The notes under the pieces: generated by a model
What the model was told of the DNA's origin: nothing
The model's database searches: none
Seen by the model: the letters and a program-made list of their open reading frames with translations, nothing else
Part shown: positions 879 through 7,225 of the stretch, in pieces
How positions within the stretch are numbered: the first letter of the stretch is position 1
Layout of the letters: each line of letters begins with the position of its first letter
NCBI GenBank assembly: GCA_000004985.1
Contig: GG739152.1
DNA: 7,225 nucleotides
Reading direction: 5' to 3' (one strand)
DNA from: Naegleria gruberi
Taxonomy: Eukaryota
Position numbers and translations under genes: made by a program

Positions 879-3800
879 NNNNNNNNNNNNNNNNNNNNNN
901 NNNNNNNNNNNNNNNNNNNNNNNNNNNNNNNNNNNNNNNNNNNNNNNNNNNNNNNNNNNNNNNNNNNNNNNNNNNNNNNNNNNNNNNNNNNNNNNNNNNN
1001 NNNNNNNNNNNNNNNNNNNNNNNNNNNNNNNNNNNNNNNNNNNNNNNNNNNNNNNNNNNNNNNNNNNNNNNNNNNNNNNNNNNNNNNNNNNNNNNNNNNN
1101 NNNNNNNNNNNNNNNNNNNNNNNNNNNNNNNNNNNNNNNNNNNNNNNNNNNNNNNNNNNNNNNNNNNNNNNNNNNNNNNNNNNNNNNNNNNNNNNNNNNN
1201 NNNNNNNNNNNNNNNNNNNNNNNNNNNNNNNNNNNNNNNNNNNNNNNNNNNNNNNNNNNNNNNNNNNNNNNNNNNNNNNNNNNNNNNNNNNNNNNNNNNN
1301 NNNNNNNNNNNNNNNNNNNNNNNNNNNNNNNNNNNNNNNNNNNNNNNNNNNNNNNNNNNNNNNNNNNNNNNNNNNNNNNNNNNNNNNNNNNNNNNNNNNN
1401 NNNNNNNNNNNNNNNNNNNNNNNNNNNNNNNNNNNNNNNNNNNNNNNNNNNNNNNNNNNNNNNNNNNNNNNNNNNNNNNNNNNNNNNNNNNNNNNNNNNN
1501 NNNNNNNNNNNNNNNNNNNNNNNNNNNNNNNNNNNNNNNNNNNNNNNNNNNNNNNNNNNNNNNNNNNNNNNNNNNNNNNNNNNNNNNNNNNNNNNNNNNN
1601 NNNNNNNNNNNNNNNNNNNNNNNNNNNNNNNNNNNNNNNNNNNNNNNNNNNNNNNNNNNNNNNNNNNNNNNNNNNNNNNNNNNNNNNNNNNNNNNNNNNN
1701 NNNNNNNNNNNNNNNNNNNNNNNNNNNNNNNNNNNNNNNNNNNNNNNNNNNNNNNNNNNNNNNNNNNNNNNNNNNNNNNNNNNNNNNNNNNNNNNNNNNN
1801 NNNNNNNNNNNNNNNNNNNNNNNNNNNNNNNNNNNNNNNNNNNNNNNNNNNNNNNNNNNNNNNNNNNNNNNNNNNNNNNNNNNNNNNNNNNNNNNNNNNN
1901 NNNNNNNNNNNNNNNNNNNNNNNNNNNNNNNNNNNNNNNNNNNNNNNNNNNNNNNNNNNNNNNNNNNNNNNNNNNNNNNNNNNNNNNNNNNNNNNNNNNN
2001 NNNNNNNNNNNNNNNNNNNNNNNNNNNNNNNNNNNNNNNNNNNNNNNNNNNNNNNNNNNNNNNNNNNNNNNNNNNNNNNNNNNNNNNNNNNNNNNNNNNN
2101 NNNNNNNNNNNNNNNNNNNNNNNNNNNNNNNNNNNNNNNNNNNNNNNNNNNNNNNNNNNNNNNNNNNNNNNNNNNNNNNNNNNNNNNNNNNNNNNNNNNN
2201 NNNNNNNNNNNNNNNNNNNNNNNNNNNNNNNNNNNNNNNNNNNNNNNNNNNNNNNNNNNNNNNNNNNNNNNNNNNNNNNNNNNNNNNNNNNNNNNNNNNN
2301 NNNNNNNNNNNNNNNNNNNNNNNNNNNNNNNNNNNNNNNNNNNNNNNNNNNNNNNNNNNNNNNNNNNNNNNNNNNNNNNNNNNNNNNNNNNNNNNNNNNN
2401 NNNNNNNNNNNNNNNNNNNNNNNNNNNNNNNNNNNNNNNNNNNNNNNNNNNNNNNNNNNNNNNNNNNNNNNNNNNNNNNNNNNNNNNNNNNNNNNNNNNN
2501 NNNNNNNNNNNNNNNNNNNNNNNNNNNNNNNNNNNNNNNNNNNNNNNNNNNNNNNNNNNNNNNNNNNNNNNNNNNNNNNNNNNNNNNNNNNNNNNNNNNN
2601 NNNNNNNNNNNNNNNNNNNNNNNNNNNNNNNNNNNNNNNNNNNNNNNNNNNNNNNNNNNNNNNNNNNNNNNNNNNNNNNNNNNNNNNNNNNNNNNNNNNN
2701 NNNNNNNNNNNNNNNNNNNNNNNNNNNNNNNNNNNNNNNNNNNNNNNNNNNNNNNNNNNNNNNNNNNNNNNNNNNNNNNNNNNNNNNNNNNNNNNNNNNN
2801 NNNNNNNNNNNNNNNNNNNNNNNNNNNNNNNNNNNNNNNNNNNNNNNNNNNNNNNNNNNNNNNNNNNNNNNNNNNNNNNNNNNNNNNNNNNNNNNNNNNN
2901 NNNNNNNNNNNNNNNNNNNNNNNNNNNNNNNNNNNNNNNNNNNNNNNNNNNNNNNNNNNNNNNNNNNNNNNNNNNNNNNNNNNNNNNNNNNNNNNNNNNN
3001 NNNNNNNNNNNNNNNNNNNNNNNNNNNNNNNNNNNNNNNNNNNNNNNNNNNNNNNNNNNNNNNNNNNNNNNNNNNNNNNNNNNNNNNNNNNNNNNNNNNN
3101 NNNNNNNNNNNNNNNNNNNNNNNNNNNNNNNNNNNNNNNNNNNNNNNNNNNNNNNNNNNNNNNNNNNNNNNNNNNNNNNNNNNNNNNNNNNNNNNNNNNN
3201 NNNNNNNNNNNNNNNNNNNNNNNNNNNNNNNNNNNNNNNNNNNNNNNNNNNNNNNNNNNNNNNNNNNNNNNNNNNNNNNNNNNNNNNNNNNNNNNNNNNN
3301 NNNNNNNNNNNNNNNNNNNNNNNNNNNNNNNNNNNNNNNNNNNNNNNNNNNNNNNNNNNNNNNNNNNNNNNNNNNNNNNNNNNNNNNNNNNNNNNNNNNN
3401 NNNNNNNNNNNNNNNNNNNNNNNNNNNNNNNNNNNNNNNNNNNNNNNNNNNNNNNNNNNNNNNNNNNNNNNNNNNNNNNNNNNNNNNNNNNNNNNNNNNN
3501 NNNNNNNNNNNNNNNNNNNNNNNNNNNNNNNNNNNNNNNNNNNNNNNNNNNNNNNNNNNNNNNNNNNNNNNNNNNNNNNNNNNNNNNNNNNNNNNNNNNN
3601 NNNNNNNNNNNNNNNNNNNNNNNNNNNNNNNNNNNNNNNNNNNNNNNNNNNNNNNNNNNNNNNNNNNNNNNNNNNNNNNNNNNNNNNNNNNNNNNNNNNN
3701 NNNNNNNNNNNNNNNNNNNNNNNNNNNNNNNNNNNNNNNNNNNNNNNNNNNNNNNNNNNNNNNNNNNNNNNNNNNNNNNNNNNNNNNNNNNNNNNNNNNN

Positions 3801-6220
3801 NNNNNNNNNNNNNNNNNNNNNNNNNNNNNNNNNNNNNNNNNNNNNNNNNNNNNNNNNNNNNNNNNNNNNNNNNNNNNNNNNNNNNNNNNNNNNNNNNNNN
3901 NNNNNNNNNNNNNNNNNNNNNNNNNNNNNNNNNNNNNNNNNNNNNNNNNNNNNNNNNNNNNNNNNNNNNNNNNNNNNNNNNNNNNNNNNNNNNNNNNNNN
4001 NNNNNNNNNNNNNNNNNNNNNNNNNNNNNNNNNNNNNNNNNNNNNNNNNNNNNNNNNNNNNNNNNNNNNNNNNNNNNNNNNNNNNNNNNNNNNNNNNNNN
4101 NNNNNNNNNNNNNNNNNNNNNNNNNNNNNNNNNNNNNNNNNNNNNNNNNNNNNNNNNNNNNNNNNNNNNNNNNNNNNNNNNNNNNNNNNNNNNNNNNNNN
4201 NNNNNNNNNNNNNNNNNNNNNNNNNNNNNNNNNNNNNNNNNNNNNNNNNNNNNNNNNNNNNNNNNNNNNNNNNNNNNNNNNNNNNNNNNNNNNNNNNNNN
4301 NNNNNNNNNNNNNNNNNNNNNNNNNNNNNNNNNNNNNNNNNNNNNNNNNNNNNNNNNNNNNNNNNNNNNNNNNNNNNNNNNNNNNNNNNNNNNNNNNNNN
4401 NNNNNNNNNNNNNNNNNNNNNNNNNNNNNNNNNNNNNNNNNNNNNNNNNNNNNNNNNNNNNNNNNNNNNNNNNNNNNNNNNNNNNNNNNNNNNNNNNNNN
4501 NNNNNNNNNNNNNNNNNNNNNNNNNNNNNNNNNNNNNNNNNNNNNNNNNNNNNNNNNNNNNNNNNNNNNNNNNNNNNNNNNNNNNNNNNNNNNNNNNNNN
4601 NNNNNNNNNNNNNNNNNNNNNNNNNNNNNNNNNNNNNNNNNNNNNNNNNNNNNNNNNNNNNNNNNNNNNNNNNNNNNNNNNNNNNNNNNNNNNNNNNNNN
4701 NNNNNNNNNNNNNNNNNNNNNNNNNNNNNNNNNNNNNNNNNNNNNNNNNNNNNNNNNNNNNNNNNNNNNNNNNNNNNNNNNNNNNNNNNNNNNNNNNNNN
4801 NNNNNNNNNNNNNNNNNNNNNNNNNNNNNNNNNNNNNNNNNNNNNNNNNNNNNNNNNNNNNNNNNNNNNNNNNNNNNNNNNNNNNNNNNNNNNNNNNNNN
4901 NNNNNNNNNNNNNNNNNNNNNNNNNNNNNNNNNNNNNNNNNNNNNNNNNNNNNNNNNNNNNNNNNNNNNNNNNNNNNNNNNNNNNNNNNNNNNNNNNNNN
5001 NNNNNNNNNNNNNNNNNNNNNNNNNNNNNNNNNNNNNNNNNNNNNNNNNNNNNNNNNNNNNNNNNNNNNNNNNNNNNNNNNNNNNNNNNNNNNNNNNNNN
5101 NNNNNNNNNNNNNNNNNNNNNNNNNNNNNNNNNNNNNNNNNNNNNNNNNNNNNNNNNNNNNNNNNNNNNNNNNNNNNNNNNNNNNNNNNNNNNNNNNNNN
5201 NNNNNNNNNNNNNNNNNNNNNNNNNNNNNNNNNNNNNNNNNNNNNNNNNNNNNNNNNNNNNNNNNNNNNNNNNNNNNNNNNNNNNNNNNNNNNNNNNNNN
5301 NNNNNNNNNNNNNNNNNNNNNNNNNNNNNNNNNNNNNNNNNNNNNNNNNNNNNNNNNNNNNNNNNNNNNNNNNNNNNNNNNNNNNNNNNNNNNNNNNNNN
5401 NNNNNNNNNNNNNNNNNNNNNNNNNNNNNNNNNNNNNNNNNNNNNNNNNNNNNNNNNNNNNNNNNNNNNNNNNNNNNNNNNNNNNNNNNNNNNNNNNNNN
5501 NNNNNNNNNNNNNNNNNNNNNNNNNNNNNNNNNNNNNNNNNNNNNNNNNNNNNNNNNNNNNNNNNNNNNNNNNNNNNNNNNNNNNNNNNNNNNNNNNNNN
5601 NNNNNNNNNNNNNNNNNNNNNNNNNNNNNNNNNNNNNNNNNNNNNNNNNNNNNNNNNNNNNNNNNNNNNNNNNNNNNNNNNNNNNNNNNNNNNNNNNNNN
5701 NNNNNNNNNNNNNNNNNNNNNNNNNNNNNNNNNNNNNNNNNNNNNNNNNNNNNNNNNNNNNNNNNNNNNNNNNNNNNNNNNNNNNNNNNNNNNNNNNNNN
5801 NNNNNNNNNNNNNNNNNNNNNNNNNNNNNNNNNNNNNNNNNNNNNNNNNNNNNNNNNNNNNNNNNNNNNNNNNNNNNNNNNNNNNNNNNNNNNNNNNNNN
5901 NNNNNNNNNNNNNNNNNNNNNNNNNNNNNNNNNNNNNNNNNNNNNNNNNNNNNNNNNNNNNNNNNNNNNNNNNNNNNNNNNNNNNNNNNNNNNNNNNNNN
6001 NNNNNNNNNNNNNNNNNNNNNNNNNNNNNNNNNNNNNNNNNNNNNNNNNNNNNNNNNNNNNNNNNNNNNNNNNNNNNNNNNNNNNNNNNNNNNNNNNNNN
6101 NNNNNNNNNNNNNNNNNNNNNNNNNNNNNNNNNNNNNNNNNNNNNNNNNNNNNNNNNNNNNNNNNNNNNNNNNNNNNNNNNNNNNNNNNNNNNNNNNNNN
6201 NNNNNNNNNNNNNNNNNNNN
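879..6220. other. Masked or unsequenced block of 5,342 consecutive N. Its content is unknown.
   Basis: I counted directly: the first n is at 879 and the last at 6220. Gene B enters it from the left and gene C exon 4 enters it from the right, so at least the 3' portions of two convergent genes lie inside. Confidence 0.99.
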
Positions 6221-6586
6221 ATCTGCACCATCTGATTCCATATCAAGCAAATTAATTGCGTCTGCTGAAGGTTGTGTTGCTCTTGTGTCAGGTTTTTTGA
6301 TCCAATCTTTAACAAGTGTTAAAAAAACAACTTCATCTTCTGCAACATAGCTCTGCAATGAAGAGAATTGACCATTGTTGGCTCTGACATGTTCTCTTGT
6401 TGGTGAAGAGGTAGAAGGTTGAATATCTGTTGCTTGAATTGAGGATGGAACCCCTTCTATATTAGAAACTTCTACATTGGAATTCTTCTTTCTTTTTGGC
6501 TTCTCTTTTTTCTTTAATTCTATTAGACTCTTTCTTTTAAAAGAACTCCACAGATTGCTGAATATCTTACTGACATAACAATAGCT
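6221..6586 (-). CDS. Gene C exon 4, visible part (122 codons, phase 0). It continues leftward into the N block. It encodes a stretch resembling a nuclear localisation signal (KRKSLIELKKKEKPKRKKN), an S/T/P/Q-rich low-complexity region and an acidic patch.
   Basis: The minus-strand frame is open from the acceptor TAG at 6589..6587 down to 6221. Translation: SYCYVSKIFSNLWSSFKRKSLIELKKKEKPKRKKNSNVEVSNIEGVPSSIQATDIQPSTSSPTREHVRANNGQFSSLQSYVAEDEVVFLTLVKDWIKKPDTRATQPSADAINLLDMESDGAD... The right-hand ends of ORF-track entries 802..6315 and 860..6358 overlap this real coding stretch. Confidence 0.7.
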
Positions 6587-6641
6587 CTAATTAATTGTTG
6601 GAAAATAATTAATAAATAATTTAAGGATAAACTTCACTTAC
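6587..6641 (-). other. Gene C intron 3 (55 nt, phase 0).
   Basis: On the minus strand it starts with GTAAGT (6641..6636) and ends with aattaaTTAG (AG at 6588..6587). A CCAAC branch-like motif lies 11 nt upstream of the acceptor. Removing it joins exon 3 (ending ...CAA AGT ATT) in frame to the long open frame of exon 4. The alternative ttcAG acceptor at 6559..6558 was tested and gives an immediate in-frame TAA. Confidence 0.55.
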
Positions 6642-6819
6642 AATACTTTGCACGTATTTATATGTATCCGTTGACAATCCATTAACATGTTTTCTGAACA
6701 ATGTTTCACCAAAAGTTAATTGCAGACAATCTTTACATGAACTCATGGCAGTATCATTTTGGGGAATCCCTTTTCGCTTACAGTAAATTCGAATACATTG
6801 CATAACTTCTCTTTTTAGT
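6642..6819 (-). CDS. Gene C exon 3 (178 nt). It encodes a Cys-rich segment with a C-x4-C-x14-C-x2-C arrangement.
   Basis: This is the inner part of ORF-track entry 6621..6848. That entry starts at a TTG (not an ATG), and its last 7 codons (VSEVYP*) are read from the GTAAGT intron. The first exon nucleotide (A at 6819) completes the codon GC|A carried over from exon 2. Exon reading: (A)LKREVMQCIRIYCKRKGIPQNDTAMSSCKDCLQLTFGETLFRKHVNGLSTDTYKYVQSI. Confidence 0.6.
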
Positions 6820-6861
6820 CTATATAAAATCAAATAAATAACTAACAATTTGCTTACTTAC
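6820..6861 (-). other. Gene C intron 2 (42 nt, phase 2). A second donor (GTAAGC) lies 4 nt downstream, giving a tandem donor GTAAGTAAGC.
   Basis: Minus strand: gtaagtaagcaaattgttagttatttatttgattttatatag. The donor GTAAGT is at 6861..6856 and the acceptor tatAG at 6821..6820. The length is a multiple of 3, and removal bypasses the in-frame TAA at 6860..6858. The result joins ...CAA CGA GC to A CTA AAA..., giving ...TQRALKREV.... Confidence 0.5.
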
Positions 6862-6931
6862 GCTCGTTGAGTATCCTTCCATCCCACTGCAGCCTTGGGA
6901 TAACAGTCAGCCAACTTTTCATATGTGGCTT
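6862..6931 (-). CDS. Gene C exon 2 (70 nt), read in the frame that gives (E)ATYEKLADCYPKAAVGWKDTQR(A).
   Basis: This frame is open from 6983 to the intron-2 donor and is the same frame as exon 3. The acceptor is gtttacCAG with AG at 6933..6932. The phase-1 start matches the phase-1 end of exon 1 (G|AA gives Glu). The alternative frame (KPHMKSWLTVIPRLQWDGRILNERK) is also open across this segment, so the frame choice rests on splice phase and a weak codon-usage preference. Confidence 0.45.
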
Positions 6932-7097
6932 CTGGTAAACATGTTATGGTTAATTTAGTCTTCTTCTTTGTTATTAGAATAATTTATGTTGAATAAATGG
7001 TGCTAAACTACTTACTTTTACTGATGGTGATGATGCTGAAATGATGTAAAATTGGCAGTTGATGGAAAAGTTACAAGGTTGATGTTGAATTACTTAC
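6932..7097 (-). other. Gene C intron 1 (166 nt, phase 1). It contains the candidate 20-nt cassette exon at 7035..7016.
   Basis: Donor GTAAGT at 7097..7092 immediately after ATGCCAG. The acceptor is ...aTTAACcATAACatgtttacCAG, which carries TTAAC and ATAAC branch-like motifs 18 and 12 nt upstream of the AG. Confidence 0.4.
7016..7035 (-). other. Candidate 20-nt cassette micro-exon (CATCATCACCATCAGTAAAA) inside gene C intron 1.
   Basis: On the minus strand it is flanked by a consensus acceptor cATTTCAG (AG at 7037..7036) and a perfect donor GTAAGT (7015..7010). Including it would split intron 1 into introns of 62 and 84 nt and shift the downstream frame by +2. See the findings entry for the frame consequences. 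Confidence 0.25.
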
Positions 7098-7104
7098 CTG
7101 GCAT
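7098..7104 (-). CDS. Gene C exon 1: a 7-nt micro first exon (ATG CCA G) carrying the start codon.
   Basis: The minus strand reads ...cacaataaATGCCAG|GTAAGTaattc. The ATG sits in an A-rich context and is followed after 4 nt by a perfect GTAAGT donor. Phase 1 matches the exon 2 frame, predicting an N-terminus MPEATYEKLADCYPKAAVGWKDTQRALKREVMQC.... There are four ACTTAC (minus-strand GTAAGT) sites in the 1,005 readable nt on this side against about 0.25 expected by chance. I cannot exclude a 5' exon further upstream. Confidence 0.3.
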
Positions 7105-7175
7105 TTATTGTGTTTTTTATTGTGTTTTTTTTGATTCGAATTTTCAGTCGAAAGCCAGTTTTTAGACGAAAAAAA
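7105..7175. promoter_or_regulatory. 71-bp head-to-head intergenic region between the start codons of gene C (minus) and gene D (plus). Presumed compact bidirectional promoter and leader region.
   Basis: The minus-strand ATG is at 7104..7102 and the plus-strand ATG at 7176-7178. The interval is T-rich on the plus strand and A-rich on the minus strand, and it contains the tandem 12-mer listed separately. Confidence 0.35.
7107..7132. repeat. Perfect tandem direct repeat ATTGTGTTTTTT x2. The second copy runs into a T8 tract.
   Basis: Read directly: 7107-7118 attgtgtttttt and 7119-7130 attgtgtttttt, followed by tt at 7131-7132. On the minus strand it reads AAAAAACACAAT x2, immediately upstream of the gene C ATG. 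Confidence 0.8.
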
Positions 7176-7225
7176 ATGTCTTTACAAAATAACAAGGAAC
7201 AAGGTATCTATTTGAAAGACGCTGG
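7176..7225 (+). CDS. Gene D: 5' end of a plus-strand CDS. 16 codons are visible before it runs off the right window edge. Product unknown.
   Basis: ATG at 7176-7178 after an A6 run (gacgaaaaaaATGtct). It reads MSLQNNKEQGIYLKDAG with no stop before the window ends. It shares the ATGTCT start with gene B. Support is only start context and an open frame over 50 nt. Confidence 0.35.
   Translation, partial: MSLQNNKEQGIYLKDA

Follow-up and report, generated by a model that had tools for sequence, protein, structure and literature searches.

Which kind of protein is encoded by the small spliced gene carried by contig GG739152.1 (assembly GCA_000004985.1) of the amoeba Naegleria gruberi, and what is the significance of its four regularly spaced cysteines? 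The gene, hereafter gene C, corresponds to NAEGRDRAFT_76782 (P0004), and is read from the minus strand of the whole stretch of DNA analysed, a window of 7,225 nucleotides (nt). A preliminary description, drawn from the letters of the window, had noticed in the product the spacing C-x4-C-x14-C-x2-C, a basic cluster and an S/T/P-rich tail, and had proposed that the cysteines form a small zinc-binding module in a protein of no recognised family. Our results point elsewhere. The N-terminal ~85 residues of the protein are probably a very divergent SWIB/MDM2-type domain, an assignment which is unproven and to which we attach a probability of about 0.5, and the gene C product is probably an ordinary lineage-restricted adaptor, associated with chromatin. 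Residue numbers follow the gene model of the preliminary description (MPEATYEK...).

Relatives of the gene C product

The conceptual product of gene C is 99% identical to the hypothetical protein NAEGRDRAFT_79192 (P0001), whose cluster at 90% identity also includes NAEGRDRAFT_76782 and NAEGRDRAFT_80659 (P0005), a full-length copy of 241 residues. A word-indexed search of 5.8e9 proteins returned this N. gruberi cluster alone. Exhaustive phmmer analysis of 1.84e9 representatives identified one real relative outside N. gruberi, the Willaertia magna protein KAL9649525.1 (P0002, 150 residues, E 8.7e-9), which in BLASTP comparisons is 39% identical to the N. gruberi protein over 87 residues (E 2e-15). 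A second hit, P0003 (1,979 residues, E 8e-5), was discarded as spurious, being internally repetitive and owing its score to six repeated short stretches. The two-species profile retrieved no further relatives from the 5.8e9 proteins, from JGI metagenome contigs or from viral contigs. The gene C protein has been found so far solely in N. gruberi and Willaertia magna.

Similarity to SWIB/MDM2 domains

SWIB/MDM2-type domains are compact, helical and partner-binding, and reside in BAF60 of the SWI/SNF complex, in yeast UAF30, in plant SWIB proteins and in MDM2. When the two-species profile was compared to 177,635 distinct PDB sequences, the best match was a domain of this type from Arabidopsis, 1V32_A (E 0.008, or 0.0058 when the domain alone was used; ~64 residues), and this was the sole match below E = 0.05. 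By BLASTP, the N. gruberi protein and 1V32 are 34% identical over 67 residues, with a pairwise E of 2e-4. The aligned stretch spans positions 6648..6878 of the minus strand, corresponds to residues 21-83 and is split by the intron at 6861-6820; the alignment begins at KDT (6878-6870). As to the identity of the match, Pfam assigns 1V32 to the SWIB/MDM2 family (PF02201, E 3.8e-11); 1V32 also matches the SWIB domains of UAF30 and SMARCD, and is listed among the Arabidopsis SWIB/MDM2 structures (PMC4721021). Gene C and 1V32, a domain of the At5g08430 type, have in common KDT..., E/D-V, Y-I/C-x-K-x-G-[IL]..P, C-[KD]..L.L.FG and T-[IL]-F-R..V..L....YK. The parent plant protein is a large multi-domain SWIB-Plus3-GYF polypeptide, whereas gene C encodes a small domain followed by a basic and an acidic tail.

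The resemblance extends beyond a single structure. An hhalign comparison to an alignment of three SWIB sequences gave P 0.019, and a comparison to an alignment of 84 SWIB sequences gave P 0.005, with 4 column-shuffled controls out of 400 reaching the real score (empirical value, 0.01). The larger alignment includes 80 bacterial SWIB loci, 1V32, UAF30, P0008 and P0009; the bacterial loci replaced an earlier and poor SWIB set, mostly made of truncated vertebrate SMARCD fragments. Scored with a SWIB hidden Markov model, 14 of 2000 shuffled sequences reached the real score of the N. gruberi protein (p 0.007), and 48 of 2000 that of the Willaertia protein (p 0.024). In the opposite direction, with the family profile as the query, 83 of the 84 SWIB sequences obtained a better score than their reversed versions, and 94% outscored no less than 95% of the shuffles derived from them. 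The similarity to SWIB domains is hence weak but consistent.

The register of the alignment is the same in HMMER searches run in both directions, in hhalign and in MAFFT, and the five bacterial SWIB alignments displayed follow the register found with 1V32. In the MAFFT alignment REVMQCIRIYCKRKGIP is placed opposite TEVVRRLWAYIKAHNLQ, and SSCKDCLQLTFG opposite ILCDEKLELILG. The core motif (R)-x-E-V...[WIL]-x-Y-I-K...L-x-d-P...[IV]-x-C-D-x-x-L...[LIF]-F-G can be followed in register along the N. gruberi protein, which reads R-E-V ... I-x-x-Y-C-K ... I-P ... S-C-K-D-C-L ... T-F-G. Tyr38-Cys39-Lys40 fall on the SWIB Y-I-K, with Cys39 on its Ile, and the Willaertia protein reads YIK; Cys54-Lys-Asp fall on the C-D motif, with Cys54 on its Cys, and Phe62-Gly63 on F-G. 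Y38, K40 and L58 are invariant throughout the mixed alignment. The helices predicted by AlphaFold span residues 3-10, 20-42, 54-61, 64-70 and 76-112, an order compatible with the SWIB fold of MDM2 and SWIB structures.

Two known members of the superfamily are instructive. Yeast UAF30 (PDB 7Z0O chain G) is, like the gene C product, a small protein composed of one SWIB-type domain and, past it, a stretch rich in Lys and Glu, and the two share a register through the core YIK ... CD..L..G; the N-terminal DEK-C domain of UAF30 has no counterpart in gene C. The p53-binding N-terminal domain of MDM2 and MDM4 is a divergent branch of the SWIB/MDM2 superfamily. These accepted members score just E 0.04-0.4 against a canonical SWIB profile, a twilight zone in which gene C falls as well, and a true but divergent member may therefore lie in this range. 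MDM2 also carries a non-ligand cysteine, Cys77, at the position of Cys54 of gene C. The gene C profile did not directly match MDM2 or MDM4, and the protein lacks the RING and the acidic-zinc regions of MDM2; p53 is not known in Naegleria.

Several results weigh against a SWIB/MDM2 assignment. PF02201 matched neither the N. gruberi protein, nor its isolated domain, nor P0005, nor the Willaertia protein at E <= 10; the gathering score of the family is 25 bits, and as controls 1V32 and UAF30 obtained 43 and 104 bits, respectively. The preliminary statement that no family could be recognised holds for both Pfam and NCBIfam scans. In the PDB profile search UAF30, SMARCD1, 1V31 and MDM2/4 were not matched at E <= 10, and the match next to 1V32 is RecX, an unrelated helical protein (E 0.075). 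The SWIB statistics all range around 0.005-0.02 and depend on each other, and the 84 SWIB sequences are mutually related. AlphaFold models are of low confidence, with a mean predicted local distance difference test score (pLDDT) of 40 when based on a 3-sequence alignment, and of 47 when SWIB sequences were added, values too low for either model to assign a fold; a Foldseek comparison of the low-confidence model to PDB yielded no match at E <= 0.001, and noise only. In global mode, hhalign produced an end alignment devoid of meaning. Finally, where the gene C protein resides and what it binds can only be inferred, as can its fold. Minor hits were set aside. Nexin_C, SAM_BAF, NOC3p and MKT1_N, emerging from Pfam and NCBIfam with E values of 0.04-0.3 at best, are far under the cut-offs and not meaningful; casein kinase II, found in a PDB search with the single sequence (E ~0.1-0.2), is a composition artefact, aligned mainly over the basic low-complexity region.

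On these grounds, the N-terminal region could instead be a lineage-specific helical domain unrelated by descent to SWIB/MDM2, in which case the whole protein would be an orphan, its fold unknown, that retains the conserved basic stretch. According to this hypothesis, patterns of amphipathic helices, along with a motif similar to YIK...FG, would resemble those of SWIB domains by chance or convergence. The silence of Pfam, the single SWIB entry matched in PDB with RecX following, P-values of just ~0.005-0.02, the lack of a confident AlphaFold fold, the empty Foldseek search and the failure to find more relatives in either protein set, or in metagenome and viral contigs, are all in line with such a notion. 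Yet, an unbiased search of 177,635 PDB sequences is topped by a SWIB domain (E 0.006-0.008), the similarity reaches 84 diverse SWIB sequences, nearly all preferred to their reversed copies, and four methods concur on the register. We regard an orphan fold as a possible, though less probable, explanation, and favour a divergent SWIB/MDM2-type domain.

The four cysteines

The four cysteines are included in QCIRIYCKRKGIPQNDTAMSSCKDC, encoded at 6800-6726 of the minus strand within one exon, the codons being located at 6797-6795 (Cys34), 6782-6780 (Cys39), 6737-6735 (Cys54) and 6728-6726 (Cys57). The spacing first reported is correct on translating the minus strand, the peptide reads as quoted, and all four residues reside in the exon at 6819-6642, unaffected by the choice of the N-terminal splice model. 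The range originally assigned to the motif, 6642-6780, was in turn inaccurate, since it omits Cys34 and clips Cys39. The 207-residue model of the preliminary description contains six cysteines overall, the five-exon database model seven, all in the N-terminal 125 residues. A pattern of the type C-x2-5-C-x8-25-C-x2-5-C was found in 1.4% of composition-preserving shuffles of the whole protein, a figure rising to 7% when the Cys-rich N-terminal 125 residues were shuffled by themselves, and such a spacing is therefore unusual only to a mild degree.

In Willaertia magna Cys34 is kept, but Cys39 is replaced by Ile, Cys54 by Tyr and Cys57 by Leu. A failure of orthologues to conserve the four cysteines was an outcome that the preliminary description had indicated as contrary to its reading, and a zinc site is unlikely because the only relative outside N. 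gruberi keeps just one of the four residues. Conservation was judged on one orthologue (n=1), which weighs against our own reading as well; the copies within N. gruberi, three in number, are too similar to each other to be informative. The notion that Cys34, Cys39, Cys54 and Cys57 chelate one zinc ion, in a zinc-ribbon or treble-clef-like arrangement possibly acquired in the N. gruberi lineage, has nonetheless some elements in its favour. The spacing is present in all three N. gruberi copies, the pattern is rare in whole-protein shuffles, and CKDC opens a predicted helix, an arrangement seen in some treble-clef sites. Against it stand the residues of the Willaertia protein, the little that near-identical copies can tell, the 7% chance of the pattern within the Cys-rich region, and the absence of zinc-finger families and solved zinc proteins from the results of Pfam, NCBIfam and PDB searches (E <= 10).

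The predicted structure tentatively points in the same direction. The convergence of the four cysteines in an AlphaFold model had been suggested as a check; in both models, which are of low confidence, Cys34 and Cys39 lie in the continuous helix 20-42, the best-scored segment (pLDDT ~60-67), at i/i+5, and Cys54 and Cys57 in the helix that follows. On a regular helix, residues at i/i+5 face different sides and cannot both serve as ligands of a single zinc ion; the predicted geometry is therefore unsuited to chelation by the first pair. Like the known Cys4 zinc modules, which include zinc ribbons, treble clefs and modules with A20 or GATA-type spacings, gene C has four cysteines in two close pairs, here 14 residues apart. 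Its first pair, however, is a C-x4-C inside a predicted helix rather than a CxxC knuckle, the candidate ligands are not conserved in the orthologue, and the searches revealed no resemblance in sequence to these families. All this makes zinc chelation by the four residues improbable.

A narrower proposal is that CKDC, a CxxC pair at the N-terminus of a helix, is a redox-active or disulfide motif. The pair does open a predicted helix. The Willaertia protein, however, reads YKDL at this position, no thioredoxin-like or other redox family was matched, and a nuclear protein, as the gene C product would be, would occupy a reducing compartment. A redox role is highly improbable.

The SWIB register places the cysteines at positions which in SWIB relatives are hydrophobic, or host a non-ligand cysteine. 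If the SWIB/MDM2 assignment holds, the four residues would not constitute a metal site; three of them occupy positions taken by Ile, Tyr or Leu in relatives, and one of these three, Cys54, would coincide with the non-ligand Cys of the CD motif. One could imagine that both features are genuine, that is, that gene C represents an unrecognised SWIB/MDM2 branch restricted to Heterolobosea and beyond the reach of current family models, and that in N. gruberi a Cys4 metal or redox site has been added on the SWIB helices. Were it so, we would be facing a lineage-specific chromatin adaptor regulated by metal or redox state, but this combination is very improbable.

Basic stretch, tail and putative role

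The basic cluster KRKSLIELKKKEKPKRKKN (6482..6538, minus strand) follows the domain and includes classical patterns of nuclear localisation signals. Conserved in part in Willaertia, it contributes to a net charge of +9 over residues 100-120. After the domain the two genera share K.K.LIE.K..EKP..., and then KRKK (residue 116) in N. gruberi and KRKR (residue 118) in Willaertia. The pattern K-K/R-x-K/R occurs at residue 116, and KRKSLIELKKKEKPKRK corresponds to the bipartite pattern KR-x10-12-basic, both being pattern matches only. The basic stretch thus fits a nuclear localisation signal.

A protein 85% identical to the UAF30 fragment, P0007, carries just past its SWIB-type domain a tail, LIQEVRRKEKPI, that MAFFT sets opposite LIELKKKEKPK of N. 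gruberi (6500-6530, minus strand) and LIEEKVIEKPI of Willaertia. These tails are of low complexity, and the likeness may denote a shared motif, or chance.

Past the basic stretch the genera share only a short R-x-N-N-x-Q-F and a hydrophobic T-L-[VI]. The former is RANNGQF in N. gruberi (6365..6385, minus strand) and RLNNRQF in Willaertia, and stands out within an otherwise unconserved S/T/P/Q-rich region in which the motifs TSSPTRE (6412-6392, minus strand) and KKPDTRATQPS (6298-6266, minus strand) are found. The acidic C-terminal tail starts at LLDMESDGAD... (6221..6250, minus strand), and the net charge over the last 33 residues is -9. The basic cluster and the three peptides just mentioned are present as originally quoted. 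The remainder of the protein consists for 41% of S/T/P/Q/N residues, and is modelled at pLDDT ~30.

These features suggest how the protein may be organised. The N-terminal ~85 residues, predicted to be helical, would adopt a compact fold of the SWIB/MDM2 type and bind a partner protein. The lysine-rich stretch next to the domain would mediate nuclear import, and perhaps contact DNA non-specifically; the S/T/P/Q-rich region, plausibly disordered, may be regulatory, and would lead to the acidic tail. As a whole, gene C could encode a small nuclear adaptor tied to chromatin or transcription. Of the earlier proposal of a nuclear protein, possibly associated with nucleic acids and endowed with a zinc module, the first part is compatible with the conserved stretch resembling a nuclear localisation signal and with the SWIB/MDM2 resemblance; the second is not supported. 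SWIB/MDM2 domains are typical of chromatin and transcription complexes, and bind partners within the SWI/SNF complex, the Pol I factor UAF and the MDM2-p53 pair, yet the functions of the SWIB domain family are still poorly defined (PMC4721021).

The result bears on no major open question. It removes a false lead, the zinc-finger reading of gene C, and offers a testable annotation, a SWIB/MDM2-like domain accompanied by a stretch resembling a nuclear signal, for hypothetical proteins of two heterolobosean amoebae. If the SWIB link is true, a very divergent branch would be added to the family, and Naegleria would be provided with a small candidate chromatin adaptor.

Gene structure and gene copies

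Gene C is a real spliced gene. Exon 1 (7098..7104, minus strand) reads ATGCCAG, with the start codon at 7104-7102 and the donor CAG|GTAAGT; the resulting N-terminus, MP..., agrees with P0004 and P0005. The exon encoding KKTKLTITCLPEATYEKLADCYPKAAVGWKDTQR(A) spans 6862..6965 (minus strand), and begins at 6931 in the preliminary description; it specifies the N-terminal helix or helices ahead of the core of the SWIB-like domain. The third exon of the preliminary description, encoding LKREVMQCIRIYCKRKGIPQNDTAMSSCKDCLQLTFGETLFRKHVNGLSTDTYKYVQSI (6642..6819, minus strand), is bounded by AG and GT, is in phase, and carries the four cysteines and the core of the SWIB/MDM2-like similarity. The visible part of the last exon (6221..6586, minus strand) is followed by 16 codons falling in a gap of the assembly, ending in ...LYSDNGQSDSEEAQQL in the full-length paralogous or allelic copies. 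Exons 7104-7098, 6931-6862, 6819-6642 and 6586 into the gap, as initially drawn, are in phase and separated by canonical GT..AG introns.

Two arrangements are conceivable at the 5' end. In the preliminary description a single 166-nt intron ends at the acceptor at 6931. In P0004 and P0005 an optional 20-nt mini-exon (ASSPSVK; 7016..7035, minus strand), left out of the former model, is combined with the earlier acceptor at 6965, giving MPASSPSVKKKTKLTITCLPEATYEK...; introns are in this case 62, 50, 42 and 55 nt long, the first two being similar in size to the others. Both alternatives are in frame, and either is compatible with the sequence. The two models are identical from EATYEK onward, and what has been said of the cysteines is thus independent of splicing. 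Within the N-terminal exon, G+C content reaches 49% in the 70-nt core, against 18-30% in the flanking introns. Database models differ in other respects as well. P0001 takes the internal Met32 as its start and is devoid of the 5' exons, and in the model of P0004, which belongs to this scaffold, the donor at 6642 is ignored and the reading frame extends into the intron, ending with ...QSIVSEVYP (region 6621-6848, minus strand).

A displacement of the cysteines into another frame had been mentioned as a risk. This is unlikely: the frame, and the junction between exons 3 and 4 of the preliminary description, are backed by three database gene models, and the Willaertia homologue aligns straight over the junction. 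That the open reading frame (ORF) is non-coding, or the residues wrongly framed, is a hypothesis fed by the disagreement of database models over the N-terminus and one of the acceptor sites. It is contradicted by the 39%-identical homologue of another genus, with an alignment crossing the exon junction, by copies which differ by in-frame indels alone, by canonical splice sites in phase, and by the marked difference in G+C content between the 70-nt core and the introns, and is hardly credible.

Near-identical copies of gene C reside on a 530-kb scaffold (P0001) and on a 362-kb scaffold (P0005), and the locus in the window is probably either another allele of these or a duplicate. Differences between P0001/P0005 and the window (~6332-6337, 6584-6586 and ~6430, minus strand) are exclusively in frame: an extra Gln (AEDEQVVF, as opposed to AEDEVVF in the window), a Ser absent from P0005 (QSIYCY, as opposed to QSISYCY), and an Asp to Ala change (QATDIQ, as opposed to QATAIQ). 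The pattern is consistent with alleles, or recent duplicates, under coding constraint. A literature search on the three NAEGRDRAFT locus tags, and on the accessions tried, retrieved no paper from the library searched.

A fragment of the same protein emerged from an unrelated assembly. P0006, a 510-nt contig from ENA, contains a 47-residue ORF fragment terminating with the exact C-terminus of the gene C protein (…TRATQPSADAINLLDMESDGADLYSDNGQSDSEEAQQL), whereas the ten residues that open it correspond to the gene C locus read in another frame. The presence of the gene C C-terminus in P0006 implies that N. gruberi-like DNA is present in that ENA sample.

The window and the neighbouring genes

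Only positions 1-878 and 6221-7225 of the window are readable letters (G+C content, 32%). The run of N at 879-6220, 5,342 nt long, makes up 74% of the window, and appears to be an assembly gap of a whole small N. gruberi scaffold, a masked repeat being not favoured. Scanning the window for Rfam families, tRNAs and repeats revealed nothing relevant.

Three ORFs flank gene C or the gap. At the left end, a minus-strand ORF starting with the ATG at 475 runs uninterrupted off the window for 158 codons (1-475). It features near the N-terminus a hydrophobic stretch, VSFSVLIILIVVMIIIINIL, which resembles a signal anchor, and no Pfam family was matched by the product. The start of a plus-strand gene is found at 838-878 (MSQQVIDLNKQHF...); the gene is cut by the assembly gap after 13 codons, and converges on gene C across the gap. 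At the opposite end, gene D is a plus-strand ORF (MSLQNNKEQGIYLKDA..., region 7105-7225) that starts at 7176 and runs off the right end of the window. Its start is 71 nt away from the start codon of gene C on the opposite strand, a divergent spacing which suggests that the two genes share a very short divergent promoter.

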